Source: a virus (Duplodnaviria; Caudoviricetes). From it: a stretch of 64,000 nucleotides of DNA. The notes under the pieces are model-generated. The model was not told where the DNA came from. It searched no databases and saw only the letters and a list, made by a program, of their open reading frames with translations. Numbering within the stretch: the first letter of the stretch is position 1; each line of letters begins with the position of its first letter. This document shows, one piece after another, positions 1 to 40,120 of the stretch. The stretch lies in the IMG/VR virus record IMGVR_UViG_3300017700_000931, positions 160,001-224,000 of that record; one strand, written 5' to 3'. Made by a program: the position numbers and the translations under genes.

Positions 1-530
1 TCATACCAAGTATTTATTTGTGTTGGGTCTGTTGCCCCGAACCCAATTCTACAACCAATTGACATTCTATCAGTTGTCCAAGAACTACCAGAACCAGTAA
101 CAGCTGTTCCAGATACCTCAACAGTACCAGTAGTATACAATTCTCTTGAAACTCTGAAGCCCCTAATAGTATGGTTTGTTGCGGTTGGGAATGTTAAGGT
201 TACAAAACCCTTCCAGTTGAACTCCGAGGTTTCTTTATTATATTCATACATAATAATTCTTCTCGTTGGTGCCGCAGCTAAGTTATCAGCTAAAAAGACC
301 AAATCAATAGTATCGGAAAAAGAAATAACGTGTGGATATACTCCGGGTATTGCGGTAGATTGTTCAAATGGTCTAGCCATACCAATCCTTGCTGGACCAG
401 CATAAATATCTTCATTAGTAGCACCTGAATATTGTTTAATTAACGTACCTAAATTGGTAACAGTTGAATTATAAGTTGTTATACCAGTTGTTGGTCCATT
501 GAACCTAAAATTTACACCTTTTATTGCCAT
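1..530 (-). CDS. Virion structural / tail-fibre-like protein, 3'-truncated by the window edge
   Basis: Manually translated open frame from ATG at 530 (MAIKGVNFRFNGPTTGITTYNST...VEVSGTAVTGSGSSW...) with no stop to position 1; not in the ORF track; Thr/Gly-rich like its neighbours. Confidence 0.6.
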   Translation of the reverse strand, partial: MAIKGVNFRFNGPTTGITTYNSTVTNLGTLIKQYSGATNEDIYAGPARIGMARPFEQSTAIPGVYPHVISFSDTIDLVFLADNLAAAPTRRIIMYEYNKETSEFNWKGFVTLTFPTATNHTIRGFRVSRELYTTGTVEVSGTAVTGSGSSWTTDRMSIGCRIGFGATDPTQINTWY

Positions 531-531
531 T

Positions 532-1149
532 TTAATTTTTTATAACTTTTATTATTAGATTAATTCTTGAAACAGTTGTTGCACTAACAACATTAAATGC
601 AACTACATCATTTGTAAAGAGTGAAGTCGACCAAGAAGTTAATGTATTGTCTGAATTAATTTGTTGTGAATTTAATCTTGGTTTTTCAGTACCTGTGATG
701 GTATTTACTATTGTTGGTATACTAGGTCCAGTTGATTTCCAAACATCAACCATACAATCACCAGTAGTATTACCAATAATATCCCACCCAATAATTGTGG
801 CATTATATGGCATTACAACGAAACCTTTAACACCATTTGTCAAAACAGAACCTGAACCATCAACAGTAATACCAAAAGTACCTGTCATACCAGTGATGTT
901 AGAGCCATCACCATAAATTGTTGTTGCTGAAAGTGTTGGTACAAATAAAGTACCAGTCATAGTGTCACCAGTTCTAGACACTCTGTCCCAACCTATTGGT
1001 AATATCGAGTTTGAAGTAGTACCGGATGTATATAATTTAACGTCAGCTGTATTTAAGGCCATTTCCCCTAATAGTAAATCACCATTAATTGGTACCTTAC
1101 CAGCAACATTCGAACGTTTCCAAAGAAACGTATTTGACCTATTTGACAT
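532..1149 (-). CDS. Tail-fibre-associated protein with Mtd_N/hyaluronidase-N-like N-terminus
   Basis: N-term KRSNVAGKVP...GEMALNTADVKLY matches the KRS...P...GE.A.NT.D.KLY pattern of phage fibre N-termini. Confidence 0.55.
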   Translation of the reverse strand: MSNRSNTFLWKRSNVAGKVPINGDLLLGEMALNTADVKLYTSGTTSNSILPIGWDRVSRTGDTMTGTLFVPTLSATTIYGDGSNITGMTGTFGITVDGSGSVLTNGVKGFVVMPYNATIIGWDIIGNTTGDCMVDVWKSTGPSIPTIVNTITGTEKPRLNSQQINSDNTLTSWSTSLFTNDVVAFNVVSATTVSRINLIIKVIKN

Positions 1150-1170
1150 ATATATGACCTATTTTACTAC

Positions 1171-1209
1171 GCTCTATAAAGAGCTGAAATTATTTGGGTT
1201 ATAAAACCC
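1171..1209. other. Two adjacent 5-bp hairpins with identical ATAA loops
   Basis: gctct-ataa-agagc (1171-1184) and gggtt-ataa-aaccc (1196-1209), intergenic. Confidence 0.5.
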
Positions 1210-1237
1210 TTTTTTTGTTTTTAAAAATAAAAAATGA

Positions 1238-2371
1238 TTAATAACTACCACCATCTAAGGTATCGAATTCTGCTAACAGTCTAACCCCATTTGGTGTTGT
1301 AGTATTAGTACTTCTAATAACAATATCATGCAATTGTGTAACCCAACCCCTATTTGCAAAGCCAGTTGGCCCTGAGTATTCACTGATATCAGGAATTTGT
1401 GAACCAGTCAGACCAGTGAAACCATTCATTGCTCTAATATCTAAAGTAACATCACCATTTAATACACCATTACCATCTTGAATAGTAAATCCGGCACCGA
1501 TAGAACTTGATGTTGTATCACCAGTAGGATTATAATTAAGAATAATATTATTATCTTCCACATAAAGTTGACCAGTTGATGCAGTAATTGCATTACCAAA
1601 GATAGTTAAATTACCATGAATTGTAACATCACCCGTACCCGGAGTACCGACAGAACCACCAGAACCGACAGTTAAACCACCAGTTCCAACGAACGCATTT
1701 CCAGATGCAGAAGTATTAATATTACCAGTGGTTAATGTATTCGTACCCGCATTATATTCAAATCCAGATTCATCAGTTAATAAACCACCAGTACCAGCAT
1801 ATACAACTCTTCCGGCAGTTAAATTAGATACGGTTAACCCTGTGAGTGTATTAATTAGTATACTTAAATTTGATAAACCTTCATTTTGTCTTATTGTCAA
1901 TGTGTTATTAGTGAAAGTAAACCCAGTAACATATGAATCAGTAATACCAGTGATAGTAACATTTGGTTTACCTTGGTTCAACCTTAGAGTGATATTGTTA
2001 GTTAAATTATTATAAGTACCACCCGTTAAATATGAATCAACACTAACGATTGAACTTATGTCTGCTAATACGAATCCATTTGTTGTTCCAGATAGAAATT
2101 TGCCTATCAATCCAGCACCACTTGTGTCCTCATATTGTGTGATTCTATTTCTAAGTCTTAAATTATATAGATTTGACCCTACTTCAAAAAAACTTGCAGT
2201 TGCCCCAGTACCAGCTGGTGTCCACTCATCAGTTGATGTAGTGACACCAGAATACCATACAATCCCCTCCGCTGTATTTACTATTGGTTCACCAGCAAAT
2301 AATGTTGTTGGCAATGGTCTATTCACTATATCACTATTCCTTGTTATATGAGTAGTATTTCTTATTGCCAT
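1238..2371 (-). CDS. Tail-fibre-like virion protein
   Basis: Mtd_N-like start (GEPIVNTAEGIVWY), YVEDNNIILNY fibre segment, C-terminal LDGGSY; Thr/Gly-rich. Confidence 0.6.
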   Translation of the reverse strand: MAIRNTTHITRNSDIVNRPLPTTLFAGEPIVNTAEGIVWYSGVTTSTDEWTPAGTGATASFFEVGSNLYNLRLRNRITQYEDTSGAGLIGKFLSGTTNGFVLADISSIVSVDSYLTGGTYNNLTNNITLRLNQGKPNVTITGITDSYVTGFTFTNNTLTIRQNEGLSNLSILINTLTGLTVSNLTAGRVVYAGTGGLLTDESGFEYNAGTNTLTTGNINTSASGNAFVGTGGLTVGSGGSVGTPGTGDVTIHGNLTIFGNAITASTGQLYVEDNNIILNYNPTGDTTSSSIGAGFTIQDGNGVLNGDVTLDIRAMNGFTGLTGSQIPDISEYSGPTGFANRGWVTQLHDIVIRSTNTTTPNGVRLLAEFDTLDGGSY

Positions 2372-2385
2372 GTTTTCTTTTTTTA

Positions 2386-2392
2386 ATAAATA
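2386..2392 (-). promoter_or_regulatory. Putative late promoter TATTTAT
   Basis: 14 nt upstream of ATG 2371. Confidence 0.55.
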
Positions 2393-2404
2393 TTAGTTTA
2401 TCGA

Positions 2405-2806
2405 TTAATATCCGCCCCCGAATAAAATATCATTTTGAAGTATTGAATTATTAGCTGTTATTTGCCTAGTATTACCAGAAGAATCAAGACCTAAGTCAAG
2501 CATTGGTGTTTCAACTCTAGTTTGAGCTACCCAAACACTGGTTGTACCGCTGACTGAATTTAATTCTCTAAATCTTCTAATATTATTACCAATATTAATC
2601 GTATTATCAGTAATTGGTAATAAATCAGTATTGAATATTGTTGCTCCACTAGTTAATAGTATTTCGGTATCACCACTACAACTTTCAACTTTATTAGTAT
2701 AAACAACCGTACATGCAGATACGACTGGTGAACCACCAGTTATTGAAAGAGGTTCGATTATGAACGTCTTATTTATGTTAGTTGTATTATTACCTCCGCA
2801 GCTCAT
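2405..2806 (-). CDS. Small virion structural protein
   Basis: Fibre-like segment (LLPITDNTINIG...RFREL), C-terminal LFGGGY; lies in the neck/tail cluster. Confidence 0.45.
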   Translation of the reverse strand: MSCGGNNTTNINKTFIIEPLSITGGSPVVSACTVVYTNKVESCSGDTEILLTSGATIFNTDLLPITDNTINIGNNIRRFRELNSVSGTTSVWVAQTRVETPMLDLGLDSSGNTRQITANNSILQNDILFGGGY

Positions 2807-3844
2807 TTATATCAAATTTCCTGTTAGTGAAAAACTACCAGTATTGTTAAAATCTTTCGTTATATGAATATAAATAACATCCCCTGATGTTACAACAAAT
2901 GGGGCAGTCACATCAGACCCATTAACCTTAATCACAATATTCGTAATATTTGTAATATTAATAAGGTTTGTGAATCTAATATCATATTCAGCATCAATAG
3001 TAAGAGTAGTTTCAGCCATAGGTTTGAAAACAAAACTATAGTTCACAATATTTGTATCCCTATCACATGTTACTCTTACCCTAGGTTTTAAATTAGATTC
3101 AAGTAGTTCTGTAACCAATAAAGCTCTATTGAGTGTTGGAACCACTTCAAAGTCGTCTTCATCTAATAAATAACCCAATAATTTCATTTCGAATAATTGA
3201 ACATAAAATCTTCTGTTTTCAAAATCATCAACAGGACTTTCATCACCTCTACTCTCAAAATGAACTGGCATTGGATGTCCATTGGGTGAAATATAATGTT
3301 GTCTAGATTGAAATTTTTTTTGTACGATTTTATCTAATTTATTTAAATCTCTCATTCGATTACAAAATAATCTAATTTCGTATGTAACATCAACAGATGT
3401 CGGTTGTGGTATTTTGTATAAATCGATTCCTTTTCTACCACTTTCAAATGTTGGTACCTTAACGTAAGTATAACTTCTTCTACCTTGAGGTATGTTCCAA
3501 TTTCCAGCTTGATTAGTACCAACCTGAACATCCGGTTTTCTAACAATCGTAATAAATGGTAATTTAATATCTTTAAACTCATCTGAGTGTTGCCATGTTT
3601 TACTAAATTCTGACCACCTTTGAATTGTTAAGAAAATGACTGGCACCTTCTCACCATCAATAACAATCATTAAATCCTTATCAACAAAATCGATGAATGA
3701 TTTATCCATATCTTCGAATCCAACCCCCCTAGGTAAAAAAGTACCTTGATTGGCTATATCATCCAATAATTCTTGTCTTCTTTCAGGACCAACTTTTTGT
3801 TTGGTTATCTTAATATTTTTTAAAAATCCTTTTGGTAATGGCAT
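2807..3844 (-). CDS. Tail completion / sheath terminator protein (T4 gp15-like)
   Basis: KVPVIF...QRW...IKLPFITI.R...P.PTSVDVTYEIRLF pattern; adjacent to a gp14-like gene. Confidence 0.55.
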   Translation of the reverse strand: MPLPKGFLKNIKITKQKVGPERRQELLDDIANQGTFLPRGVGFEDMDKSFIDFVDKDLMIVIDGEKVPVIFLTIQRWSEFSKTWQHSDEFKDIKLPFITIVRKPDVQVGTNQAGNWNIPQGRRSYTYVKVPTFESGRKGIDLYKIPQPTSVDVTYEIRLFCNRMRDLNKLDKIVQKKFQSRQHYISPNGHPMPVHFESRGDESPVDDFENRRFYVQLFEMKLLGYLLDEDDFEVVPTLNRALLVTELLESNLKPRVRVTCDRDTNIVNYSFVFKPMAETTLTIDAEYDIRFTNLINITNITNIVIKVNGSDVTAPFVVTSGDVIYIHITKDFNNTGSFSLTGNLI

Positions 3845-3856
3845 AATTTACTGAGA

Positions 3857-4381
3857 TTAAATTCCACGAAATTCTGATGGGTCAGTTGGTGCACAAACAA
3901 CAGTCCTAAATGCCCCCTTATAACCCATAATAGTATGTTTGTTATCATAGTTCTTTCTTCCGTCGTTTACCACCACGAAATATCTAATCTCAGTTTCTGT
4001 TACAGGATAACCAATGTAATCCCCAAAGCTTATGTCTGTATCAAATTCACCTAATTGCTCTTCATAGATACCGAAGGTGAATTGACCATCTTGTAAATAC
4101 CTAAGACTTCCGGCAGTTTGGTTATATGTTTTATTATCCGGTGCAGCCATTATAGGTACAACTCTTAATTCAATTGGTGGGAAATATCTAATATCATCTT
4201 TACCAGCTTCACCATAAAGGTCATCTGAAGCAGTTTGTTCTCTATCAACCCTATAAAGGATAACCATGAAATTACCATCACCCTCAATAGCTTCTCTACC
4301 CATTTCAATTTCTAACCTGAAATCTTCATGACCAAAAAATTTATTAATCCTCGTAATTGGTATTTTCTTCTCCCCTGACAT
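3857..4381 (-). CDS. Neck / head-closure protein (T4 gp14-like)
   Basis: E..REAIE..G..V.LY.V......DDLYGE pattern typical of gp14-like neck proteins. Confidence 0.55.
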   Translation of the reverse strand: MSGEKKIPITRINKFFGHEDFRLEIEMGREAIEGDGNFMVILYRVDREQTASDDLYGEAGKDDIRYFPPIELRVVPIMAAPDNKTYNQTAGSLRYLQDGQFTFGIYEEQLGEFDTDISFGDYIGYPVTETEIRYFVVVNDGRKNYDNKHTIMGYKGAFRTVVCAPTDPSEFRGI

Positions 4382-4393
4382 AGTCTTTTTTAG

Positions 4394-4400
4394 ATAAATA
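4394..4400 (-). promoter_or_regulatory. Putative late promoter TATTTAT
   Basis: 12 nt upstream of ATG 4381. Confidence 0.55.
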
Positions 4401-4429
4401 TTTGTTATATTATAAATAACATCGAACTA

Positions 4430-4458
4430 TTGATTTTTATCTTTAAAATCATTATAAT
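4430..4458 (+). promoter_or_regulatory. Sigma70-type promoter for the helicase
   Basis: TTGATT(4430-4435)-17 nt-TATAAT(4453-4458). Confidence 0.6.
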
Positions 4459-4494
4459 TAAATAAATAACGAAAGAATTAAAAATCTGTGTATT

Positions 4495-6333
4495 GTGATA
4501 GATTTGAATGACCTTAAAAGTCGGTCAGCAATAAATCTTCTAAATGAGTACAATGGGAAAAACCCATATTTACGAAAATTGAAGCTTGAATACTTGAATA
4601 ATAAGAATCTTAGATTAACTGAGAATCAAACAAGGTATATTGTAGACTTCCATGATAAAGAACCAGAATTAATCAATAAAGTGGTTAATATTACTCAATT
4701 TTTGGGTGAAGAGTTGAAAAAACAAAATGATTTAACCTTTACCCCAGAAAGGATATTAGTTGAATTTATGTTAGCTGATACTGAAAAAACATTTCATGTT
4801 TATGGTAAATTGAAAAGAAATCAGCCAAAATCAAAATCTTATTGGTTACCAAAAACACAAGTTCTAGATGACCCATATCATGAGGAAATAAATATTGATG
4901 TAGATTTCGATAAATGGACCAGCATTGATAAGCAAAAAAGAAAACCATTTGAACACCAAAAAAGTGGTGTTAAATTCTTACTATCTAAAAATGGTTGCAT
5001 ATTAGCAGATGATATGGGTCTAGGAAAGACTTATACAGCTATTATGGCCGCATTAGAAAGCAATGTGGAACGTATCCTTATAGTTTGTCCATCTGCGGTT
5101 AAAATCAACTGGGAGAGAGAAATTAATGATTTTGACGATAACACAACAATTGTTAATGGAAAAAAATGGAATAGAAGTAAATTCACTATCATAAATTATG
5201 ATATTTTAAAAAACTTCCATACCATTGGTGATGCAAAAACTGATGCTGACGGTCATATTATTGAGTTCAATAGGGAATTAGTTAATTCTAAATTCGATTT
5301 GGTGATTATTGATGAGGCACATTATTTAAAAAATCACAAAAGTATTCGTGGTGAAATCATGGTAGACTTATGTGTGAAACATAATGTCGAAAAGGTTTGG
5401 TTACTAACCGGAACCCCCATTGCTAATAGGCCAATGGATTTTTATAATTTATTAAAATTAATCAAAGCTCCAATTGCTGATAACTGGAAATTCTTTGCAC
5501 AAAGGTATTGTGATGGAAAAAGATTTTACAAAACAGTTAGGGGTAGAAAACGTCAAATATGGCTTACCGATGGTGCATCCAATCTAGAGGAATTATCAAT
5601 TAAAACTAGAAATATTATCCTAAGAAGGAAAAAAGAGGATGTTTTGGATATGCCGGATAAAACCGTCGGAACAATTTATCAAGAATTGGATAAAAAGGGA
5701 TTGAAAAAATATGAAGACCTCTGGGAAGAGTATTTGGAAAAACGTATTGAGGAAAAGAAAAGAGGAACACCGGATAAAGATTTGGTTGAATTAATTCTTT
5801 TAAGAAAATTTATTGCTCTAGAAGCAATACCATACACTATAGAGTTAGCTGAAAACGCTGTTGAGCAAGGTCAAAAGGTGATAATATTCACAAGCTTTAC
5901 TGATGAATTAAATGAATTAGCAAATCATTTTGGTACTAAGTGTGTTGTTCATAATGGACCTATGTCTCAAGTAGCGAAACAAAATAGTGTTGATTCATTT
6001 CAAAATAATCCGAACATACAATATTTTATTGGTAACATTAGGTCTGCTGGGGTTGGTATTACTTTAACTGCTGCAAACTATGTTATATTTAATTCATTTG
6101 ATTGGGTACCCGGAAACAATGAACAAGCTGAAGACCGTGCATACCGTATTGGTCAAAAGAATAATGTTACTGTGAAATACCAATTATTTAAAGATACCAT
6201 CAGTACAAAAATGTGGTGGACTCTAAATAAGAAAAAAGATATCATTTCAACAATCATCGGTGAGAAAGAAATGGATGAAGCTGAAATTGAAAGAAGAATA
6301 ATAGATGAATCAATTAAAATCGATGAAGACTAA
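4495..6333 (+). CDS. SNF2-family (SMARCAL1/HARP-like) helicase
   Basis: LADDMGLGKT (motif I), IIDEAHYLKN (DEAH), LLTGTPIANRP, AGVGITLTAA, QAEDRAYRIGQ; GTG start. Confidence 0.92.
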   Translation: MIDLNDLKSRSAINLLNEYNGKNPYLRKLKLEYLNNKNLRLTENQTRYIVDFHDKEPELINKVVNITQFLGEELKKQNDLTFTPERILVEFMLADTEKTFHVYGKLKRNQPKSKSYWLPKTQVLDDPYHEEINIDVDFDKWTSIDKQKRKPFEHQKSGVKFLLSKNGCILADDMGLGKTYTAIMAALESNVERILIVCPSAVKINWEREINDFDDNTTIVNGKKWNRSKFTIINYDILKNFHTIGDAKTDADGHIIEFNRELVNSKFDLVIIDEAHYLKNHKSIRGEIMVDLCVKHNVEKVWLLTGTPIANRPMDFYNLLKLIKAPIADNWKFFAQRYCDGKRFYKTVRGRKRQIWLTDGASNLEELSIKTRNIILRRKKEDVLDMPDKTVGTIYQELDKKGLKKYEDLWEEYLEKRIEEKKRGTPDKDLVELILLRKFIALEAIPYTIELAENAVEQGQKVIIFTSFTDELNELANHFGTKCVVHNGPMSQVAKQNSVDSFQNNPNIQYFIGNIRSAGVGITLTAANYVIFNSFDWVPGNNEQAEDRAYRIGQKNNVTVKYQLFKDTISTKMWWTLNKKKDIISTIIGEKEMDEAEIERRIIDESIKIDED

Positions 6334-6589
6334 AGTTTATACAATACCGAAATGTCCATACTGCTCTAAATTGAAGACCTTATTGGATGAAATGAACATA
6401 GAATATGAAACAATTGATGTTTCATTAGATGAACATGAAGAAGAATTTAAAAAATTGATGGAGATATCAGGAAGTGATTCTGTCCCAATGATTACTGTTG
6501 GAGTTAATCTATTAGCCCCAGATGTGAATTTTTCATCAATAGACCAAGCAGCTAAATTAATTAAGTACATTCTAGAAAACGAATCTTAA
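6323..6589 (+). CDS. Glutaredoxin
   Basis: CPYC active site and SVP cis-Pro motif; start moved to the second Met. Confidence 0.85.
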   Translation: MKTKVYTIPKCPYCSKLKTLLDEMNIEYETIDVSLDEHEEEFKKLMEISGSDSVPMITVGVNLLAPDVNFSSIDQAAKLIKYILENES

Positions 6590-6882
6590 ACAGCGTCTTC
6601 GTATCCGGTTGAATAATCATTCATTAGACTTTGCAGATGAGAAATGATTGTTGGTTCAGTTACCTCAAATGAACTACTAGTGTCACTTGGTCTACCTAAC
6701 ATTTCTTTAATGGCCTCTAATCGTTGTCTAATCTCAGGATTATCACAATATTGTATTGCCATTTCCATTTCTCGATAAGCATCAAATAAGTGATTGGCGG
6801 CTTTATTAATAATACCGTATGTCACTGTTTGCCTCTTATGAAGTTCAAGTTTTTCTTTTATCAATCTCTTAGTTTCCATCAT
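6586..6882 (-). CDS. Hypothetical protein
   Basis: 98-aa ORF filling the gap between the glutaredoxin and neck genes. Confidence 0.6.
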   Translation of the reverse strand: MMETKRLIKEKLELHKRQTVTYGIINKAANHLFDAYREMEMAIQYCDNPEIRQRLEAIKEMLGRPSDTSSSFEVTEPTIISHLQSLMNDYSTGYEDAV

Positions 6883-6884
6883 TA

Positions 6885-6896
6885 ATAAATATTTAT
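6885..6896. promoter_or_regulatory. Palindromic double TATTTAT site between divergent genes
   Basis: ATAAATATTTAT carries the motif on both strands; 17 nt upstream of ATG 6914. Confidence 0.5.
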
Positions 6897-6913
6897 AAAA
6901 AAAGGAAAGAACT

Positions 6914-8059: not shown

Positions 8060-8089
8060 AAAAGGAGGCAAATATTTGCCTCCTTTTTT
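8058..8089. terminator. Bidirectional intrinsic terminator
   Basis: Perfect 32-bp palindrome aaaaaaggaggcaaat/atttgcctcctttttt between convergent genes. Confidence 0.85.
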
Positions 8090-8090
8090 G

Positions 8091-11693: not shown

Positions 11694-11772
11694 AAATTAT
11701 TTTTTGATAAGCCTATTCATTAAAGCTTAAGCAAAAAAACAATAAAAAAATCTAATCCACAAGACTTTATAA

Positions 11773-12147: not shown

Positions 12148-12160
12148 AGTCTTTTTTATA

Positions 12161-12167
12161 ATAAATA
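12161..12167 (-). promoter_or_regulatory. Putative late promoter TATTTAT
   Basis: 13 nt upstream of ATG 12147. Confidence 0.55.
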
Positions 12168-12983: not shown

Positions 12984-12988
12984 GAACA

Positions 12989-13016
12989 ATTATATGAATA
13001 AATTAAAAAATGGAAA
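12989..13016 (-). promoter_or_regulatory. Possible sigma70-type promoter, near-leaderless, for the sulfotransferase
   Basis: TTTCCA-16 nt-TATAAT, with the -10 only 5 nt from ATG 12983. Confidence 0.35.
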
Positions 13017-13027
13017 TATCTTAATAA

Positions 13028-16000
13028 TTAAAATGCGTAGCTCCAAGCAATCCTACCCCAACCAGTATTTGTTTTTTGATACCAATAATCATCATCCCAA
13101 GCAACAGAACCAATATTACCAGCAGTATCGCCGGAACCAGTAGGTGTATATGATTGTTCAAGTCTAAATTGAGTACTTCCAGTAACACCATTAACATGTA
13201 ACATATCAGTTGGGGTAAGGGTACCAAAACCACTATCTCCACCATCCGTTATAATAGCATAATTTTCATTATTACTTACGTTAGTTGCCTTGAAATAACC
13301 AGATACATTAGTTACACCGGACCCAACCGCTGAAGCGTCTGAATAAATACCATATACAGTTTCAGCACTTACGGTAGAGACGTAACTAACCTCAAAACGC
13401 ATACCGTAAGAATTAGCATTTTCTATATTAGTACTTTGAGAAATATTAGCATATATAGCTCTACGGTCATCAGCTAAGGTAGCACCAACATTACCCCAAA
13501 CACCAGCAACAAAATCACTAGGAGTTACCGCATCACCACCATTAGCACTACCGTACACACCCACTGAATAAGTAGACCCGTTCCTAGCAGAAAAATATCC
13601 ACCATAATTTTGGGAGTACCCATTAATTCCAGAATTTCCATAAAAAGACCTACCAATTCCAGTTCCACCACCAGTAACATCAGACCAAATACCGTTATAG
13701 TTAGAACTACTAGTACCACCTTGTGCCAATATTGCATATCCATTATTAGCTAAGTTGGTACTTGATATATTTATAGCACCATCTAATCCACTACCAGCAG
13801 TGATATATATTCTATCACCTGAATTTGGTGCCACATTCACCCCAATACGGCCATTATCTTTAATTGTTAATAAATTATCTACAGTCGCACCCTCAACTTT
13901 GAATGCTATACCAGTAAAAGTATCACCAGTTGCCTTAGCATGAACTAATGCGGTAGGTGCAGTAATATTAAATCCAGATTTACCTGCATAGTGATTTATA
14001 GTATCAGCACCTTGTTGGTAAAATCCATAATCATTAGCACCAAGTGTGTTAGCTTGTAAAAGAACACCATATGTGTTTGTAACCGTTGGGGATGTAACGT
14101 TAACGGGGGTTCTAACCAGAACCCCAATCATATTTGAAATAGTTCCAGATAAATTTTCTTGGTATGAAACATCCAACCCACCTAGTAAACTAATGTTACC
14201 AGCTTGATACTGTACTCTTGCTGAATAAGCGAAAGCATTGGTGATATTAGCATTACCAATATTATAAATTTGTGATTCTGTACCATACATATAATTAATA
14301 CTACCAGTTCCATCATTCCTTGTTTGGTAATAAGAGCTATGTAAATAACCCAAATTAAATGCACTTGATTTATATATACGAGATACAAATGTATTTGCGG
14401 TGTTACTATTATTAGAAGTATTATTATATGTTTGGTCGAATACAACTGTGTTTGTATAATCTGCACTAGTTGTGACATCAACACGTAATCTAGCTGCATT
14501 TGCGAAACCACCAGCAAGTGTGTTTATACCGATACACAAACCACCATCATCAGTTATTCTAGCTAACTCTGTTGGAGTACCATTTTGCCATATTTGAGCA
14601 CTTGTATTCGTTGTTGTACCCGTACTTCTCACATGTAATGTTGCATCCGGTATTGTTAGATTTGTGGGTAAACCAATACCAACACGTCTATTATCACCAT
14701 TAATCAACATGGCTAAGGTACCACTAGTGTTGAAGTTATTATCCCAACCAGTCGAAAACGTCATAGTACCAGTTGATTCAATAAGTGATATATCATTAGC
14801 ACTGGTTGCTCTCATACTAATACCACTTCCATTCCTATCAGCATGGAAACCAGTATATGTTGCTGAATTACTAAATTGTACTAATCTATTGCCTATATGA
14901 TTTAAATAATTAGATGATGTACCAAAAACTGATTCAGCCCCATTTTTGGTGAATTCAGTATATCCATCATCTCTAACACTAATTAATTCAGTTGTTTGAT
15001 TTCTTACTTTAAATGTATGATTACCACTACCTGTTGTGGAACCATTAATCGTAACTGGCGAACAACCGTAAATATCTGTAACATATAAATCACTAATACA
15101 TGATGCTGATGTATTTCCAGTAAATGTAAATGAACTTGCTGCTTTATATTTAACTGTACCATCTGCTGCCCTAACTAATACTTGGGTTAAAGCATTATCA
15201 TTATCCGGCACATTATTTAAATTTAATGTAGGAACATAAACAGTATTATTTGAAGTACCACTAATATTATTACCACCTATTACAACTGCATTACCACTAG
15301 CATAATTGTTTAAACCACCTATGATTGCAGAATAGTAACCGTTATTAATTGTGTGATTTCTACCACCAATAATTGCTGAATAATAACCACCACCTTGGAT
15401 TGAACTATGCTTACCACCAAGTATTACTGATTGTAATGTTGAAATGGAATTATAACCACCACCACCAATAAATGAATGTGCCGCATAAGCACCACCACTA
15501 ATTATGTTTTTATATCCACCAACGATTGCTGAATTTTGTGTGGTAGCTGAATTTCCATAAGTACCACTATAACCAGCATAGAATCCACCACCACCAATGA
15601 ATGAACCAATACCACTAGCTAAATTTCTAGTACCACCAGCAATCGATGAATAATTTCCAGAAGTGGTATTCCCCAATCCACCACCAATTGCTGAATAATT
15701 TCCAGTCACTGAATTTTGTGTACCCCCAACAATTATGCTACCATAACCATTGATTGTGTTATAGAATCCACCACCAATAAAACTTTTGCTCCCACCATTC
15801 AATATTGTATTATTATTACCACCAACGATTGAAGATACATAACCATTATTTAGGTTATATAAACCACCAACAATTACGTTATAAGTATTACCACTAATGG
15901 TGTTATGGGCACCACCACCAATGAATGCCCTATAACCAGCTAATATTCTATTATCTATACCACCAACGATTGCGGATTCATTATTTGTTACTAAATTAAG

Positions 16001-16495
16001 TCTACCACTACCAATAAATGAATAATCACCACTAACAACGTTTTGATTACCACCACCGATAACACCATTAACTGATGTCACTGAATTACTACCACCACCA
16101 CCAATAAATGCATAGCTTCCAGAGGCGATGTTAAATCCACCACCAGCAATAGTAGTATAGGTACCACTAGCATTGTTACCACCAAGTGCTGGTTGTATTC
16201 CAGTAGCTCCAGAATAAACATATGGAGATATACCTCCACCAGTATTAAAAACTGACCAATCAGTAAAATCAAATAACCAAGGTTCTTGATTTAATTTATA
16301 ATAATCAGTACCACCGGATACACCAACCACCATACCAGCAATTCTTCTATCTTCAGTGATGTTATCTAAGTCTGCTAATGTATCAACATTCCTAAAACCA
16401 TCACGCATATACCTTGCATCGATAATTGCATATGTATCACCAGTTGATGTTGGTGCAAATTCACCAGTCGCTTGTACAGTTCCGTTTATTGCCAT
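13028..16495 (-). CDS. Long tail fibre / adhesin with Gly-Gly-x-x-Asn beta-roll repeats
   Basis: N-term DAR...RR.AGM.V.V attachment-type domain; ~15-aa [ST]xI[VG]GG..N repeats; C-term AWDDDYWYQKTNTGW.R module. Confidence 0.75.
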   Translation of the reverse strand: MAINGTVQATGEFAPTSTGDTYAIIDARYMRDGFRNVDTLADLDNITEDRRIAGMVVGVSGGTDYYKLNQEPWLFDFTDWSVFNTGGGISPYVYSGATGIQPALGGNNASGTYTTIAGGGFNIASGSYAFIGGGGSNSVTSVNGVIGGGNQNVVSGDYSFIGSGRLNLVTNNESAIVGGIDNRILAGYRAFIGGGAHNTISGNTYNVIVGGLYNLNNGYVSSIVGGNNNTILNGGSKSFIGGGFYNTINGYGSIIVGGTQNSVTGNYSAIGGGLGNTTSGNYSSIAGGTRNLASGIGSFIGGGGFYAGYSGTYGNSATTQNSAIVGGYKNIISGGAYAAHSFIGGGGYNSISTLQSVILGGKHSSIQGGGYYSAIIGGRNHTINNGYYSAIIGGLNNYASGNAVVIGGNNISGTSNNTVYVPTLNLNNVPDNDNALTQVLVRAADGTVKYKAASSFTFTGNTSASCISDLYVTDIYGCSPVTINGSTTGSGNHTFKVRNQTTELISVRDDGYTEFTKNGAESVFGTSSNYLNHIGNRLVQFSNSATYTGFHADRNGSGISMRATSANDISLIESTGTMTFSTGWDNNFNTSGTLAMLINGDNRRVGIGLPTNLTIPDATLHVRSTGTTTNTSAQIWQNGTPTELARITDDGGLCIGINTLAGGFANAARLRVDVTTSADYTNTVVFDQTYNNTSNNSNTANTFVSRIYKSSAFNLGYLHSSYYQTRNDGTGSINYMYGTESQIYNIGNANITNAFAYSARVQYQAGNISLLGGLDVSYQENLSGTISNMIGVLVRTPVNVTSPTVTNTYGVLLQANTLGANDYGFYQQGADTINHYAGKSGFNITAPTALVHAKATGDTFTGIAFKVEGATVDNLLTIKDNGRIGVNVAPNSGDRIYITAGSGLDGAINISSTNLANNGYAILAQGGTSSSNYNGIWSDVTGGGTGIGRSFYGNSGINGYSQNYGGYFSARNGSTYSVGVYGSANGGDAVTPSDFVAGVWGNVGATLADDRRAIYANISQSTNIENANSYGMRFEVSYVSTVSAETVYGIYSDASAVGSGVTNVSGYFKATNVSNNENYAIITDGGDSGFGTLTPTDMLHVNGVTGSTQFRLEQSYTPTGSGDTAGNIGSVAWDDDYWYQKTNTGWGRIAWSYAF
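15260..16160 (-). repeat. Degenerate ~14-16 aa tandem peptide repeats in the tail fibre
   Basis: e.g. SFIGGGFYNTING / SIIVGGTQNSVTG / SAIGGGLGNTTSG / SSIAGGTRNLASG; boundaries approximate. Confidence 0.75.
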
Positions 16496-16512
16496 TTTTT
16501 ATATTTTTATAA

Positions 16513-17928
16513 TTAAGTCGTGATTATAGAGATGGTACCACCCAAAGTATTTTTAGTCCTGTAAACATCGTAGGTTATAGGAATACCAAAGGCATTAGTA
16601 ACAACTACTTGTTGTGTATAGTAACCATTATTGAGTATTGTATAACCATCATCAATACCAGCCATAGCTACAGTTAAATTAGTTGAAGCATCTCTGAATA
16701 AAGTTGGGTTAGTTAATGCTACTGGAATACAAATATATTTGTAATTACCAGCACCTAAAGCATACGTTGCATTAGCAGTCGTTGCTAAATTGGTACTGGT
16801 TAAACCAGTAATATTACTCGCAGTTAAAGCAGTTAATGCACTGGTTCCGTAGTATATTCTATTATACCAGTTAACAACGAAATTTCTTGTAAATGTCGCA
16901 TTATTAGTATTCTTAGCTGAAATTTGCCAAGTTTGAGTACCAGCAACCGTCCTAGTTACACTTGGTATTGATATAACTTCAGAACCATCATTTGCAATAC
17001 CACTAGATGGTGTATTGATAAATGCACCAGTATTGATGTTTTTAATTTTAACTGAGTTTGCTTGGATATTCCCACTAAATGTCGTTGCCCAAGTAAATGT
17101 CCTAGGACCACCTAAAATACTAGCCCCAATTTCTAAACTAGTAGATTGGGCACTTATAAGGAATGAACTAAAAGCTGGATTCAAATATGGATATAATAAA
17201 GCATTCCACATTTCTTGCATTGTTACACCACTAAAACTACTACCAGCTAAAATACCACCAATTGTTGTTGGTGTTGGTGCCGGATTAGTATACAATAATG
17301 TACTTGATGAGGTTGGGTCCGTATCAAATACTTGCATTGAATCACCATTATAAACCATGAAATAAGTGATTCCGGTGGTTAACCCACTAGGTACTGGACC
17401 CTCCAAACCATTTTCTGTTGGTACAAATAAATCTAAAATACCATTTCCGTCAATATTAATTGTTGTTGCGGTAGTTATGTTTGTATCATCAAACATAATA
17501 GCATATACAACATTTGTTAAATAACCACCAGTAATGGTAGGGTCAGCAACACCAATATAATTGTCTGCTGTACTTGCCGTAACATTTACATATTGATTAA
17601 AAGAAGGTGTACCGAATCCTAAATTAGTCGTGACACTAAAACCATCGTTTCTACTCAGAACTAATGTTGCACCACTCATAGTAGCACCAGTAACAAATGT
17701 ATCTCCAGCTGAAACAATTCCACTAAGGTCTAAATCGATAGATGTACCATCGACTTTATACAATGTAAGTGTTGTACCAGAAGTATCACCAGTATACACT
17801 AAATTACCCTTAAGATTTATGAAGTTATTATCTAAATCAGTATGTGATAATACCGACCCTAGATTAATATCAGTAAATTGCCCTGAAAATGGACTGTTTT
17901 TGCTTCTAAGAATTAATTTATAGCTCAT
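16513..17928 (-). CDS. Virion structural protein (fibre/whisker-like)
   Basis: LSHTDLDNNFINL N-terminal fibre motif, Thr/Ser/Gly-rich beta-type composition, TATTTAT upstream. Confidence 0.6.
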   Translation of the reverse strand: MSYKLILRSKNSPFSGQFTDINLGSVLSHTDLDNNFINLKGNLVYTGDTSGTTLTLYKVDGTSIDLDLSGIVSAGDTFVTGATMSGATLVLSRNDGFSVTTNLGFGTPSFNQYVNVTASTADNYIGVADPTITGGYLTNVVYAIMFDDTNITTATTINIDGNGILDLFVPTENGLEGPVPSGLTTGITYFMVYNGDSMQVFDTDPTSSSTLLYTNPAPTPTTIGGILAGSSFSGVTMQEMWNALLYPYLNPAFSSFLISAQSTSLEIGASILGGPRTFTWATTFSGNIQANSVKIKNINTGAFINTPSSGIANDGSEVISIPSVTRTVAGTQTWQISAKNTNNATFTRNFVVNWYNRIYYGTSALTALTASNITGLTSTNLATTANATYALGAGNYKYICIPVALTNPTLFRDASTNLTVAMAGIDDGYTILNNGYYTQQVVVTNAFGIPITYDVYRTKNTLGGTISIITT

Positions 17929-17946
17929 TTGTTTACTAGTTTATCT

Positions 17947-17953
17947 ATAAATA
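17947..17953 (-). promoter_or_regulatory. Putative late promoter TATTTAT
   Basis: 18 nt upstream of ATG 17928. Confidence 0.55.
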
Positions 17954-17965
17954 GTTCTAGATAAG

Positions 17966-17993
17966 AAAAAAAGGTCTCAGTGAGACCTTTTTT
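17966..17993. terminator. Intrinsic terminator
   Basis: A7-ggtctc-agt-gagacc-T6 directly after the stop of 17997..19805. Confidence 0.8.
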
Positions 17994-17996
17994 CAA

Positions 17997-19805
17997 TTAA
18001 ATAGCTGAACAACCACTACATGTTCCATACCTATCACACTCTTCAGCACAATTAGCTTTTAATTCACACCAATTTAAATCACAAATGTGAAATCTAAATT
18101 GAGAAATACTACCAATGAATGTACCTGCAAAATTTTCTTGAATACATAATCCTAAATCATCTGGGTCTTGACCATCAAAAGTCATCGATTCTAATAATCC
18201 TTGAGAACCACCACCTAAGCTGATGTTATAAGGAACACCAACCTGTTTCTTCCAGTGTTCACCATTCGCAATCCCCAATCGTCTAGCAATAAATTCATCG
18301 AATTCAGCAACATGTTTGAGTCTACAATTCACATAAAACATTAATTTACCTTGTCTTGAGCCCTTAGTTTCTAATTCACACTCATCATACGTATCATTAG
18401 CTACAAATCTAACTGAAATGTTAGTCCAAACATTATCACTCACCATACCACTTGCTGAAAACGATTCTTCAATAGAACAACCGGACACATAAGTATCACC
18501 TGAGCATACACCACTAACCGTCAAAAGTCGGTAACCAATACTACCATCATCTTTAATAATGAAAGCCATTGCATTATCAACAACATCAAGTCGCCAATCT
18601 AATTCGGTTACTTCTACAGAATCACCAGAATAATTACATGCTAAAGTTGGTGTCGATGCTGTATCACCACAAGGAGAACAACCTCTACCGTTTGCTCTAT
18701 GATAAATTAGGAATGGATTTCTAAAATCAGTTTGTACCATTTGTGTACTAGTAACAAAAATACTATTACCAGTAAAACTGCAAGTGGTATATCTACCAAA
18801 TCTGTCTCCAACGGTATTACAAATAGTATCACATTCGAATGTTGATGCTGATGTCACACCAGTTGTACAACCAGTATTTATGTTAGTATTTCCTGTAGAA
18901 CCACAAGGTTGACAAGATGAATCTCTCGCCCTACCATAAATTAAAAATTGATTAGTAATTTCAGTAATGGTTATTAATGGTGGATTTAGTGGAAATGGTA
19001 ATCCACTCACATCATCCCAGATACAAAGGTCAATTTCTTTTGGAATCGTACACCATTCAGTTGCACCGGATGTGCATGCTGATGTACTACCAGTATTCAA
19101 CCCTTCAAACTGATTCCAGAATTTATTCTCAGCCCTAGTCCCTAAATAAAAAAATATTCCTTTATTTTCTGGATACAAATCATTCAGAGTAGTCCCAGTT
19201 GTTCCACTACAAATATCATCTGACTTATTTAACCAAAATTCAGCAACCCAAGCCTTCGGTACTCTATTCGGTAATACCTCATAAGAATTACCATCTAATT
19301 TATAAAATCCTTGGTAAAAACCACCACATAAATTCATGTAATCACCAACGGCACCAGAAAAAGAAACATGCTCCATTGGATAAACATAATTTCCTGTCAT
19401 ACCAGTTACTCGATTTAAAATTAGTCTTGTATCTCCAGATACAATTACAAGTGTTGAGCCAGTTAATGCAGATAATAGTGCTTGATTAGTTGTATCACCA
19501 GATAATTTATTATAAGTGATTAATCCATTATCAATACCTGTTAAACCAATGGTATTTAATGTGTAACCAGTATTTGTTGCACCAGTCCATGATGTTAGGC
19601 TATAAATGGTATCTGCTGATGTAGAGCCGCTAGAATATATATCACCATCATTAAAATCATAATGCACTACAAGACAATCAGCAACCAAGCCAGTATTTTG
19701 TGCTGAACAAGATTCATCTTTCCCTAAATAAAAATCATAGTATTCACTATCACTCAATCTAAGCTCTAATTTTTTTGCATTAAAATTTAAAATATTACCA
19801 GCCAT
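17997..19805 (-). CDS. Cys-rich virion protein with LamG/concanavalin-like elements
   Basis: WVAEFWL, WTNISVRF, KLMFYVN and FIGSISQFRF segments typical of LamG folds; 27 Cys counted. Confidence 0.5.
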   Translation of the reverse strand: MAGNILNFNAKKLELRLSDSEYYDFYLGKDESCSAQNTGLVADCLVVHYDFNDGDIYSSGSTSADTIYSLTSWTGATNTGYTLNTIGLTGIDNGLITYNKLSGDTTNQALLSALTGSTLVIVSGDTRLILNRVTGMTGNYVYPMEHVSFSGAVGDYMNLCGGFYQGFYKLDGNSYEVLPNRVPKAWVAEFWLNKSDDICSGTTGTTLNDLYPENKGIFFYLGTRAENKFWNQFEGLNTGSTSACTSGATEWCTIPKEIDLCIWDDVSGLPFPLNPPLITITEITNQFLIYGRARDSSCQPCGSTGNTNINTGCTTGVTSASTFECDTICNTVGDRFGRYTTCSFTGNSIFVTSTQMVQTDFRNPFLIYHRANGRGCSPCGDTASTPTLACNYSGDSVEVTELDWRLDVVDNAMAFIIKDDGSIGYRLLTVSGVCSGDTYVSGCSIEESFSASGMVSDNVWTNISVRFVANDTYDECELETKGSRQGKLMFYVNCRLKHVAEFDEFIARRLGIANGEHWKKQVGVPYNISLGGGSQGLLESMTFDGQDPDDLGLCIQENFAGTFIGSISQFRFHICDLNWCELKANCAEECDRYGTCSGCSAI

Positions 19806-19809
19806 TTAA

Positions 19810-21930
19810 TTAAAATTTTTCTAGACCAGTCCTTCTCCAACCAGTATTTGTTTTTATGTAAACATAATCATCATCCCAAACAACATCTCCAACTAATCCA
19901 ATTTTATCGCTAGAAGAAATTGGTGAAAATTCAGGTAGTGTTAATTGACTCGTAGTCAAAGAAGGTCCGACAACCCATCTACCATTTTCATCTATCTTAA
20001 TGAAAGAATCAGTATTATTGTTGACACCATTTTTTACTGAAATACCACCACCGACAGATGTTTCATGAGTACCACCAAAATTCAATTCAATAGTATTATC
20101 TTCAGCTGCAATCGTTTGTGTTTCTAATACTGTATTTGTAATAATAACATCACCAGAACTCAGCTCTTTAATAGCTTCAACTAACCATGGGATTATTTCA
20201 GTATAACTAAGATTTAACATACCATCACCCTTAGACCTAAATTTAACGATTTCTGGTATTATTTTTTGTACTTCTTGGGCGATAAATCCATATCTAAGAC
20301 CAGAACCCATATTTGATTCTTCGGTATATTCAAATGAAACACCCCTAATATTCTTAATAGATTCTAATGCATTTGACAATCCATTAATATTTTTCTTAAG
20401 TCTAGCATCAGAAGTACCAGCAACAATTTTTCCATTAACATCGGTCGCAATTGGGTCTGTTGATGTCAAGCCATCAATAATTAAATCTGGAACATATACC
20501 ATATTACTAAAAGCTCCAGTAAAACCAACACCACCAATAATCACAGTATCACTAAGTCCAGAATTAATTGTTGAACCAGAACTACCGATTATTACATTTC
20601 TAGAACCAGCATTAATTAAGTTGGTGTCACCACCAACTATAGCCGAACTAGATGAACCAAGAATCGTATTTGAAGAACCACCAATTAGTGATGCTGATGC
20701 ACCACTTATGAATCCACTATCAGAACCCCCGATAAATGAACCAGAAGAATCACCAGCACCATCATTAATCAAATTACTACTACCACCAACAATAATTGAT
20801 GTGTTAGAATCAATAGCATTATTATCACCACCAATAATAAATGATTTTGACCCACCAGATAAAACATGGTCAAAACCACCAATAATACCACTATATGTTG
20901 TTGACCCACTAATAATATTAAACGACCCGCCTAGTAAAATAGAATGGGTCGAACCAGATGCAATCAAAAAATCAGAACCACCTAAAATTGCAGAATAATT
21001 AGCATTAGCTTCTGAATCCATAAATGTTGAAGAAGAATGATTAAATGCTGCAATACCTTTAGCTTTTGTATAATAAGGTGAAACTGACTTACCACCAGAA
21101 AATGTAGCTGCACCTAAAGCTTGTGTTCTGGTACCAATTGCTGTTGCGGTATCACCAGTAGCTAAGGTAGCACCACCAAATGATGTAGAATATCTACCAC
21201 TACTAGTAGTTCCACTACCCCATGCGACTGAATATAAATTACTAGCTGTAGAACCATGATTTTTAGCTGAAATGGCATTAGTACCAGTACCTGCTGACCA
21301 TAATGTAGTACCGCCAGTAATGCCTGACACAGGAGCATAATAAACATCACCATCATTATTTAATGCAGTTAAAACGTATCCTGTTTGTGCTCCATTGGTA
21401 ACAATCAAACGATTAGTTTTATGTATTCCTTTGACTTCTGACCAAATAGTTCTACCAGTAAAATCTAAAGTACCTGCACTAAGATAAAAAACATCATCCG
21501 AAACAACTGAACCAGTAAATATACCCGGAGAAGTTTCAGTAATTGCTGTTACAATTATATCAAATGTAATTCCAGTATAATTTAGATATGACACATTACC
21601 ATCAAGTGTTTGTGAATTATCACCTACCCAAACATAACCACTATTTTGTGTTATTGCACTAGTCGAATCTGTAATAGCTGAAAAAACATTTTGAGCTATA
21701 TTCATACTAGGGTGACCAAATGTGAATACCGTTGTACCAGTATTTCCAGAAAAATTACTAACGATATTGATAATAGTACTGGTTGTTGCTGAAGTAGTTG
21801 AATCAGGTCCAGATGTTAGAGCACTAAAAGGTACACCAAACTCAGTAATACCACCTAAATTATGGTATTCTCTCTCCGGTAGACGATGTTGTCTATTATC
21901 TTGAAAGTTAATTTTTGTGGTAAAAGGCAT
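19810..21930 (-). CDS. Tail fibre with Gly-rich repeats and peptidase S74 chaperone domain
   Basis: SDARLKKNI...GFIAQEV...Y.EIIP.LVEAIKEL (S74); [ST]xI[LI]GG repeats; C-term WDDDYVYIKTNTGW.R. Confidence 0.8.
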   Translation of the reverse strand: MPFTTKINFQDNRQHRLPEREYHNLGGITEFGVPFSALTSGPDSTTSATTSTIINIVSNFSGNTGTTVFTFGHPSMNIAQNVFSAITDSTSAITQNSGYVWVGDNSQTLDGNVSYLNYTGITFDIIVTAITETSPGIFTGSVVSDDVFYLSAGTLDFTGRTIWSEVKGIHKTNRLIVTNGAQTGYVLTALNNDGDVYYAPVSGITGGTTLWSAGTGTNAISAKNHGSTASNLYSVAWGSGTTSSGRYSTSFGGATLATGDTATAIGTRTQALGAATFSGGKSVSPYYTKAKGIAAFNHSSSTFMDSEANANYSAILGGSDFLIASGSTHSILLGGSFNIISGSTTYSGIIGGFDHVLSGGSKSFIIGGDNNAIDSNTSIIVGGSSNLINDGAGDSSGSFIGGSDSGFISGASASLIGGSSNTILGSSSSAIVGGDTNLINAGSRNVIIGSSGSTINSGLSDTVIIGGVGFTGAFSNMVYVPDLIIDGLTSTDPIATDVNGKIVAGTSDARLKKNINGLSNALESIKNIRGVSFEYTEESNMGSGLRYGFIAQEVQKIIPEIVKFRSKGDGMLNLSYTEIIPWLVEAIKELSSGDVIITNTVLETQTIAAEDNTIELNFGGTHETSVGGGISVKNGVNNNTDSFIKIDENGRWVVGPSLTTSQLTLPEFSPISSSDKIGLVGDVVWDDDYVYIKTNTGWRRTGLEKF
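20520..21000 (-). repeat. Degenerate Gly-Gly peptide repeats in the second fibre
   Basis: SILLGGSFN / SFIIGGDNN / SIIVGGSSN / SAIVGGDTN; boundaries approximate. Confidence 0.7.
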
Positions 21931-24405: not shown

Positions 24406-24406
24406 A

Positions 24407-28520: not shown

Positions 28521-28702
28521 TGAATATTCAAGCTGCATTACATGATTTATTAGCTAAGCACGAATCTAGGCTTAAACAATTGTTAATTGAGGTTGTAATG
28601 GGTAACTATTATGACGGATGGAGCTTGAATGGTATTAGAAACGAAATAGTAATTTTAGAAAAACAAATAATTGAAATTAAAAAAGACTTAAAAATATGGT
28701 AA
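28520..28702 (+). CDS. Small hypothetical protein
   Basis: 60-aa ORF with overlapping stop/start on both sides. Confidence 0.5.
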   Translation: MNIQAALHDLLAKHESRLKQLLIEVVMGNYYDGWSLNGIRNEIVILEKQIIEIKKDLKIW

Positions 28703-40118: not shown

Positions 40119-40120
40119 GA

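Follow-up and report, generated by a model that had tools for sequence, protein, structure and literature searches.

A short turn motif in the outer proteins of an uncultured jumbo phage as a plausible signal for attaching sugars to the virion surface

The window analyzed here, a stretch of 64,000 nucleotides, comprises bases 160001-224000 of a 362,532-bp virus record (IMGVR_UViG_3300017700_000931) which contains direct terminal repeats, is rated 100% complete and represents an uncultured jumbo phage of 362 kb. The G+C content of the window is 30-37%. Bases 1-21930 are occupied by a minus-strand block of fibre-type genes, with a few replication genes interposed, and this block is followed by a plus-strand block that extends from 21936 to about 50 kb. 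The subject of the present analysis is the tetrapeptide [ST]GxT that recurs in the products of the fibre-type genes. A preliminary description of this DNA took the tetrapeptide for a mark of modification sites (O-glycosylation, possibly with sulfated glycans) and named a purely structural role in beta-turns as the main alternative. The fibre-type open reading frames (ORFs) of the window and the tail sheath gene located just upstream are listed below, with protein lengths in amino acids (aa); counts of [ST]GxT are given as observed versus expected, and the z-scores were computed for each ORF against whole-protein shuffles.

3..530, minus strand: fibre-like ORF that runs off the window start, 176 aa seen; 2 [ST]GxT; no family match
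532..1149, minus strand: 205-aa tail-fibre-type protein with matches to phrog_17885 and phrog_35830 (tail-fibre N-terminus); 3 versus 0.8, z 2.5
1238..2371, minus strand: 377-aa fibre-like protein; 10 versus 2.06, z 5.7
2405..2806, minus strand: 133-aa fibre-associated protein with a weak tail-fibre PHROG match; 4 versus 0.37, z 5.9
13028..16495, minus strand: 1155-aa long fibre rich in Gly, Ser and Thr; 10 versus 3.8, z 3.2
16513..17928, minus strand: 471-aa fibre-module protein; 8 versus 1.68, z 5.1
17997..19805, minus strand: 602-aa outer protein, a concanavalin-A-like/CBM40-like jelly-roll; 15 [ST]GxT and 5 [ST]AxT, z 13.6
19810..21930, minus strand: 706-aa tail fibre with matches to PF13884 (63.5 bits) and many tail-fibre PHROGs; 11 versus 2.5, z 5.6
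L103:609-3449 (genome 155108-157948), just upstream of the window: tail sheath (phrog_23), 946 aa, of which about residues 114-349 form a variable insert

The enrichment of the tetrapeptide over shuffled controls is strong and specific to the fibre-type ORFs. When the eight fibre-type ORFs are pooled, 63 copies are observed versus 12.8 in shuffles (standard deviation 3.5; the highest of 1000 shuffles contains 25), whereas the remaining 60 ORFs of the window contain 10 copies versus 6.8 expected. Among the scored fibre ORFs, the weakest enrichment is that of the 205-aa protein (p 0.04). The counts made by hand in the preliminary description for ORFs 17997-19805, 1238-2371, 16513-17928 and 532-1149 (15, 10, 8 and 3 copies, respectively) were found to be exact, as was the statement that 15 of the 26 SG or TG dipeptides of the 602-aa protein are followed by xT. 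The tetrapeptide is also common in both long fibres (13028-16495 and 19810-21930), as described, and, equally in agreement with that description, the enzymes and head proteins do not stand out: the major capsid protein contains a single copy versus 0.5 expected and the enzymes contain none.

Genome-wide, the enriched proteins are encoded in two minus-strand clusters, at 104-116 kb and 155-182 kb of the genome, and include the tail sheath. The sheath protein contains 13 copies versus 2.4 expected, 10 of which are located within the variable insert. The sheath homologues vary in length from 817 to 1492 aa, which points to high plasticity of the outer domains across this family. The 377-aa protein contains repeats of about 25 residues of the type 'Y-x-TG-x-T...N-x-T-L-x-[IL]', and the 471-aa protein contains the tandem pairs TGDT-SGTT and TGAT-x-SGAT. 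The 706-aa fibre combines YadA-head-like repeats with a C-terminal intramolecular chaperone domain, which was the only part of this fibre to be matched in a sequence search of solved structures; the same search gave no match for the 602-aa or the 377-aa protein. The fibres are rich in Thr and Gly and lack S-x dipeptide arrays. No megablast or tblastn match was found for the fibre region, the 377-aa protein or the related TGGT-repeat fibre discussed below in 50,697 cultured phage records.

An unbiased scan for gapped triplets in 14 motif-bearing proteins returned S-G-x-T (47 versus 8.6 expected), T-G-x-T (53 versus 10.5), S-A-x-T (29 versus 4.8) and T-A-x-T (19 versus 6.5) as the top four patterns, so that the actual motif is [S/T]-[G/A]-x-T. 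The only bias outside these four residues is found at position -1, which is hydrophobic in 54% of the cases versus 34%. The full motif is thus (hydrophobic)-[S/T]-[G/A]-x-T, and it is directional and narrow. Among the same 14 proteins together with ORF 3-530, closely similar patterns are barely or not at all enriched, including [ST]G.S (1.4x), NG.T (1.0x), DG.T (0.9x), the reversed order T.G[ST] (1.1x) and the N-linked sequon N-x-[ST] (143 versus 133.8, 1.07x). The tail fibre proteins gp34-38 of phage T4 are not enriched either (8 copies versus 4.7 expected), which indicates that the motif is not a general property of fibres; within this set, gp36 and gp37 show a mild excess (8 versus 2.3). 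The GDTMTG fibre repeat (PF03406), which contains [ST/A]-G-D-T, was considered as the source of the motif and rejected because it accounts for one site in the window only, namely TGDTMTGTL in the 205-aa protein, where one of the three [ST]GxT copies is part of this signature but no Pfam match is obtained. Asp occupies the x position in just 14 of 147 motif sites, and there is no conserved downstream M-T-G or flank.

Ser, Thr and Gly are abundant in the motif-bearing proteins, and ACT is the codon used for 81% of the Thr residues at position 0 versus a background of 41%, so an artefact of composition or of a DNA-level word such as ACTGGT had to be considered. However, shuffling within blocks of 20 or 40 residues still leaves 100 observed copies versus 21-22 in the 15 motif-bearing proteins of the genome, so that local composition is not the cause of the enrichment, and permuted or nearly identical patterns do not share it. 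The bias towards ACT is a codon-pair effect, given that ACT is preferred before every Gly codon throughout the genome; a DNA-level signal behind it is thereby ruled out. In the whole genome, ACT accounts for 67-81% of Thr codons before Gly versus 35-36% of those without a following Gly, and, outside the motif, for 76% in the T-G pairs of the fibre and sheath set and 67% in the rest of the proteome. More generally, Thr and Ser codons preceding Gly tend to end in T and to avoid A at the third position. We therefore consider an artefact of this kind to be extremely improbable.

The 602-aa protein belongs to a large family: 626 representatives are found at E <= 0.001, over 580 stretches in IMG/VR match it, and the number of motif copies ranges from 0 to 23 across the best 150 of the 626 representatives. 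In the 16 close relatives (35-57% identity), every homologue contains 13-23 copies, and only two motif positions are common to all 17 sequences; thus, the positions turn over while the copy number is held. Among the neighbours of the close-relative loci, all fibre-like proteins are enriched and all non-fibre proteins are not. In the motif-free members of the family, the aligned turns read N/D/E-G-x-N/K/E. In the motif-rich members, [ST]G.T is enriched 12.4x and [ND]G.T stands at 0.6x, versus 0.67x and 2.9x, respectively, in the motif-free members. The use of the same turn in the motif-free homologues indicates that the Gly turn is ancestral and that the hydroxyl residues are a lineage-specific overlay; the existence of motif-free homologues with the same fold in other jumbo phages further shows that the fold does not need the motif.

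The AlphaFold (AF2) model of the 602-aa protein, built with 113 sequences, has a mean predicted local distance difference test (pLDDT) of 85.7 and a predicted template modelling score (pTM) of 0.85, and Foldseek matches it to the PilC lectin module, CBM40 and pentraxin. Judging from this model, the 602-aa protein would more plausibly bind glycans as an outer protein than serve as a fibre shaft. Most of the 20 motif copies are predicted to be located in loops and hairpin turns, and one in a helix. Thr at position +3 is located at, or one residue before, a predicted strand start, for example at sites 63, 79, 115, 123 and 435, the last of which is a two-residue hairpin. Four copies lie in a low-confidence, apparently disordered insert rich in Cys, Thr and Gly (residues 295-332, window 18810-18923). 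This insert is absent or different in most homologues. Burial of the motif residues, which would speak against modification, is not indicated by the predicted positions, but a turn-forming role fits these positions equally well.

The genes of the window that could act on such sites are listed below, together with two landmark genes.

24454..25698, plus strand: soluble GT-B (GT4/RfaG-like) glycosyltransferase; phrog_7162 at E 5e-41, Atlas viral glycosyltransferase (GT) clusters
28696..29814, plus strand: GT-A glycosyltransferase, Glyco_tranf_2_5; PF13712, 122.5 bits
29807-30445 and 30442-31173, plus strand: two translationally coupled small GT-A-like ORFs with DxD motifs; PF00535, 18.9 and 21.1 bits, below the cut-off
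31916..38912, plus strand: sugar-tailoring block by Pfam matches, with a GNAT acetyltransferase, a DegT-type aminotransferase fragment, two SAM methyltransferases, a HAD-nucleotidyltransferase fusion and a UDP-GlcNAc 2-epimerase
43086..43880, plus strand: weak GT-A-like ORF; PF00535, 17.5 bits
12168..12989, minus strand: soluble sulfotransferase, between the fibre genes and the DNA polymerase gene; PF13469, 50.6 bits, and PF00685, 47.2 bits
8091-11693: DNA polymerase, within the fibre-gene block
52764-54563: T4-type major capsid protein, PF07068

The sulfotransferase reported in the preliminary description is solidly supported by these matches, and so are the members of the sugar-tailoring block. 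The accompanying figure of about nine glycosyltransferase-like genes was only partly borne out, with two solid genes and three or four weak GT2/GT-A-like ones; for ORF 31149-31928, a GT-D-like (DUF1792) assignment is supported by no Pfam, PHROG or meaningful NCBIfam match. All glycosyltransferases and the sulfotransferase are predicted to be soluble, with no transmembrane segment in the GT-B enzyme or the sulfotransferase. The GT-B enzyme contains E-x7-E at residues 350-358. The GT-B and Glyco_tranf_2_5 genes are located 2.5-7 kb from the fibre operon. Three genes unrelated to glycans, for a PTH2-type peptidyl-tRNA hydrolase, a PhoH-like ATPase and a sigma-70 region-2-like protein, lie within the same stretch (39750-40975 and 43882-44622), so that the 'glycan island' does not consist purely of glycan genes.

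The distribution of the motif among related phages closely follows that of the GT-B gene. The sample consisted of 160 further loci of the 602-aa family, the long records of which were searched for transferases. Among the 74 distinct homologues of known status, all 62 from GT-B-positive records contain at least two copies of the motif and all 12 from GT-B-negative records contain fewer (62/0/0/12). The density in the 602-aa homologue is 0.21 copies per 100 aa where no transferase is found, 0.76 with GT-B only and 2.02 where Glyco_tranf_2_5 is present in addition. The four complete GT-B-positive genomes show observed-to-expected ratios of 2.1-2.8 and 4-9 significantly enriched proteins each, with extreme values in some of these proteins (66 copies versus 5.3; 100 versus 22.6), compared to ratios of 1.17-1.25 and 0-1 enriched proteins in the four complete GT-B-negative genomes. 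The sheath contains 4-10 copies in transferase-bearing relatives (2 in one partial ORF) versus 0-4 in transferase-free ones. In a blind phyletic profile, we compared 56 proteins common to this phage and three distant motif-bearing genomes with four motif-free genomes. Forty of the 56 are present in all four motif-free genomes, eight in three, seven in two, and a single one in no more than one. That protein is the GT-B enzyme, and its one match there is merely a weak one at 29% identity. Thus, the GT-B gene is the best phyletic match to the motif, ranking first among 56 conserved genes.

Other candidate partners were examined and rejected. Glyco_tranf_2_5 occurs in the clade that is richest in the motif as well as in several smaller lineages from other parts of the tree, and is missing from several complete motif-bearing genomes, so that it is not a universal partner. 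The UDP-GlcNAc 2-epimerase is present in only 6 of 22 motif-rich relatives and therefore does not mark the motif; its patchy presence implies that the sugar-tailoring block is variable. The GT-A-like ORF 43086-43880 is found in all seven compared genomes, including the motif-free ones.

Taken together, these observations establish that the motif is real, narrow, lineage-specific, surface-located and co-distributed with one phage glycosyltransferase, its frequency in the fibres, the sheath and the lectin-like protein being about five times that expected by chance, and they make it a plausible site at which sugars could be attached to coat the virion. We propose, with a probability of roughly 0.45, that the motif is a turn element that has been recruited and multiplied as a candidate acceptor of phage-encoded O-glycosylation. 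The motif would form a small surface turn that consists of a hydroxyl residue, a small residue, any residue and then a Thr that opens the next beta-strand, and it would have been multiplied over the proteins that face outwards, which comprise the fibres, the outer insert of the sheath and the lectin-like protein of 602 aa. Soluble glycosyltransferases of the phage itself might then recognise the motif as an acceptor in the cytoplasm, either ahead of assembly or in the course of it. Of these enzymes, the GT-B (24454-25698) would be the most likely to act on the protein directly, whereas Glyco_tranf_2_5, the further GT-A enzymes and the variable tailoring genes could extend a strain-specific glycan that the sulfotransferase might modify. 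We infer the sugar attachment, the residue modified, the initiating enzyme and the role of the coat from the patterns described above, and the same applies to sulfation of the glycans and to shielding. In its most extended form, in which a soluble GT-B reads a minimal turn as an O-glycosylation sequon and, together with variable extending and tailoring enzymes, gives a sugar coat to the fibres, sheath and lectin-like adhesins throughout a large clade of jumbo phages with a global distribution, the proposal is a tentative one that we hold to be slightly more doubtful than even.

Several observations weigh against the acceptor-signal proposal, the case for which rests on correlation throughout. 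The non-virion proteome does not avoid the tetrapeptide (about 44 copies observed versus about 44 expected), and a reader enzyme would therefore need context beyond the four residues. One transferase-bearing relative, G017, has an unenriched sheath, although the respective ORF is partial. The tree shows only two changes of the GT-B state and three of the motif state; two independent pairs are both concordant, which corresponds to a sign-test p of 0.5, and the pair tests, with 1-3 pairs, were powerless. With only two changes of the GT-B state, shared ancestry could be the source of the link. Furthermore, the GT-B gene is preceded by the promoter-like word CATTATAATTAAA (24400-24453), which is also found before the gene for a 612-aa protein at 4495 (4440-4494), next to the DNA polymerase gene, and not by ATATTTATA, the word of the structural genes. 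Structural genes, including those for fibre and head proteins, are preceded by either ATATTTATA or CTATTTATAG (17929-17996, 56148-56273, 56970-57057, 58764-58810 and 63011-63098). This difference suggests that the GT-B transferase might not belong to the late expression class. Two features of the turn itself also weigh against the acceptor-signal proposal: the Gly is conserved in the motif-free homologues too, and beta-strand propensity would likewise favour Thr rather than Ser at +3.

A further point against the proposal is a fibre of 1561 aa (L002:4180-8865), in which the motif occurs 99 times as the core of a repeat of 15-17 residues, as would be expected of a structural repeat. This repeat, of the type 'V-TGGT-Y-x-N-G-x-x-T-F-T-N-N-TGGT-F', is present in about 60 copies, the series of which is broken by a YadA-head-like block. 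The TGGT repeat is not covered by any Pfam family, and no relative of it was found in 185,579 bacterial and archaeal genomes or in the cultured phage records. A more serious counter-example is provided by motif-rich fibres of the TGGT type that are encoded in two contigs, G059 (28,983 bp, 95% complete by CheckV; one fibre with 42 copies versus 8.2) and G061 (27,931 bp, 87% complete by CheckV; fibres with 33 versus 8.1, 16 versus 3.8 and 15 versus 5.3). In neither contig did searches for GT2, Glyco_tranf_2_5, GT1, GT1_4, phrog_7162 and the GT-B homologue return a match. These contigs (L178-L181) represent an unrelated family of small phages that have a terminase, portal and protease of their own; at least 597 stretches in IMG/VR match this family, the longest contigs of which measure about 32 kb. 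The small-phage fibres are up to 71% identical to a jumbo-phage fibre repeat over the best-matching segment (residues 10-388 matched). Given that the other members of this family are not motif-rich, the two contigs probably acquired their fibres by exchange and kept the motif without a visible transferase; this looks like an exchange of fibre modules between very different phages.

These fibres and the predicted positions of the motif are consistent with a purely structural role, the alternative named in the preliminary description, which still stands. The motif would then be an ST-turn followed by a strand start, the core of exchangeable beta-hairpin or solenoid repeats of fibres, with nothing attached; it would be favoured where outer proteins have exchanged charged residues for Ser, Thr and Gly, for instance in the binding of host polysaccharides, and the glycan island would act elsewhere or would be merely co-inherited. 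The periodicity of 15-17 residues in the TGGT-type fibres, the placement of Thr at strand starts and Gly in turns in the predicted model, and the retention of Gly, and partly of G-x-T, in homologues where [ND]G.T is in excess all agree with such a role. So do the composition of the motif-rich proteins, which are low in Lys and Glu and high in Ser, Thr and Gly, the persistence of motif-rich fibres in the two small-phage contigs and the reduction of the transferase link to two evolutionary events. However, a structural role leaves unexplained why Asn or Asp before G-x-T is at or below expectation in motif-rich proteins (0.6-1.0x), why three unrelated folds, those of the fibres, the lectin-like protein and the sheath insert, change together, and why the single conserved gene that matches the distribution of the motif should be a glycosyltransferase; nor does it account for the lack of enrichment in T4 fibres. 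On balance, we regard a purely structural role as a serious possibility that is, nevertheless, somewhat improbable. Conversely, the original claim that the motif marks modification sites gains from the enrichment, the lineage restriction and the co-distribution with GT-B, the motif being absent in the jumbo family exactly where GT-B is absent, and loses from the small number of events on the tree and from the two motif-rich contigs without a transferase.

The turnover of motif positions in the 16 close relatives of the 602-aa protein, with the number of copies kept, suggests a reader of some kind, which could be something other than a glycosyltransferase, such as the adjacent sulfotransferase, a kinase that phosphorylates the motif, an assembly chaperone or a ligand bound by a repeated surface. 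The soluble sulfotransferase is encoded inside the fibre module and is kept in the closest relative, L058, with 80% identity. However, it is found in the flanks of three related loci only and does not track the motif, and the phyletic profile yielded no kinase or dedicated chaperone with the right distribution. Accordingly, a reader of this other kind appears unlikely to us.

Several known systems resemble the proposed glycosylation of virion proteins. The bacterial autotransporter heptosyltransferases (BAHT; Aah and TibC, acting on AIDA-I and TibA) O-glycosylate beta-helical adhesin repeats at multiple sites in the cytoplasm, the acceptor being a short strand-loop-strand element rather than a long sequence, and a turn motif inside TGGT-type fibre repeats might follow the same logic. 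However, the candidate enzyme of the jumbo phage is a GT4-like GT-B, its motif is different, and no BAHT (TIGR04414) or GT9 homologue was found in the complete genome. The glycosylation system of serine-rich-repeat adhesins (GtfA/B and GT-D/DUF1792) is not matched, in view of the lack of support for DUF1792 and of Ser-rich dipeptide arrays.

Phage-encoded glycosylation of virions has been described for mycobacteriophages (Freeman et al. 2023, cited in PMC12619734). As in that system, soluble phage glycosyltransferases are encoded near structural genes, and the proposed target is the phage's own particle proteins in the cytoplasm. In mycobacteriophages, glycans were reportedly measured at the C-termini of capsid and tail-tube subunits, whereas in the jumbo phage the system is predicted from sequence; the capsid protein of the latter is unenriched, and the candidate sites are internal, with a dispersed four-residue motif. 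The mycobacteriophages reportedly also encode methyltransferases beside the glycosyltransferases.

Islands of soluble glycosyltransferase and sugar-tailoring genes that adjoin tail-fibre genes and vary among strains, as in the window, are also known as 'LPS' (lipopolysaccharide) or cell-wall clusters in aquatic T4-like myoviruses and from the moraphages, jumbo phages of Bacteroidota of up to 307 kb that have four core glycosyltransferase groups (PMC12619734). The descriptions of those islands give no acceptor motif, whereas for this phage we propose a candidate acceptor together with the one transferase that tracks it best. With regard to DNA glucosylation of the T4 type, the enzymes that would make the acceptor base (dCMP/dUMP hydroxymethylase, TET/JBP) were not found. 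The sole ThyA homologue passes the equivalog cut-offs of thymidylate synthase (TIGR03284, 329 bits; NF002496, 327 versus 325), and no TET/JBP gene (PF12851) was detected in the genome by a search that matched no control genome either. With ThyA being a true thymidylate synthase and no TET/JBP found, a hydroxymethyl-base acceptor for DNA glycosylation is not evident, and DNA is an unlikely target of the glycan island.

Large phages from aquatic and sediment environments have long been known to carry big sugar-building islands with no assigned target. If the motif is an acceptor, it identifies the outer tail proteins as the target, points to the enzyme that probably initiates the modification and provides a searchable four-residue signal. 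It would then be the first protein-glycosylation sequon defined for a phage and would offer large phages a general means of varying their surface, with a bearing on how phages hide from or bind to their hosts and on the engineering of glycan-coated particles. If its role is structural, the motif is still useful as a marker of an exchangeable family of fibre repeats.

Several additional features of the enzymes discussed above were observed. In the thymidylate synthase (L101:160-1275, genome 227959-229074, 371 aa), the family match is split into two or three stretches with a gap at about residues 223-254 that may reflect an insertion. In several relatives (G001:C1:181765-184074, G030:C1:41393-43747, G029:C1:134915-137224 and G004:C1:69405-72845), the GT-B gene is split, in that two separate matches, to residues 16-183 and 168-414, fall within open frames of 771-1156 aa; this arrangement looks like an intein or an in-frame mobile insertion. 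Finally, the GT-B homologues of G041, G046, G053 and G060 each contain one in-frame TGA or TAA.

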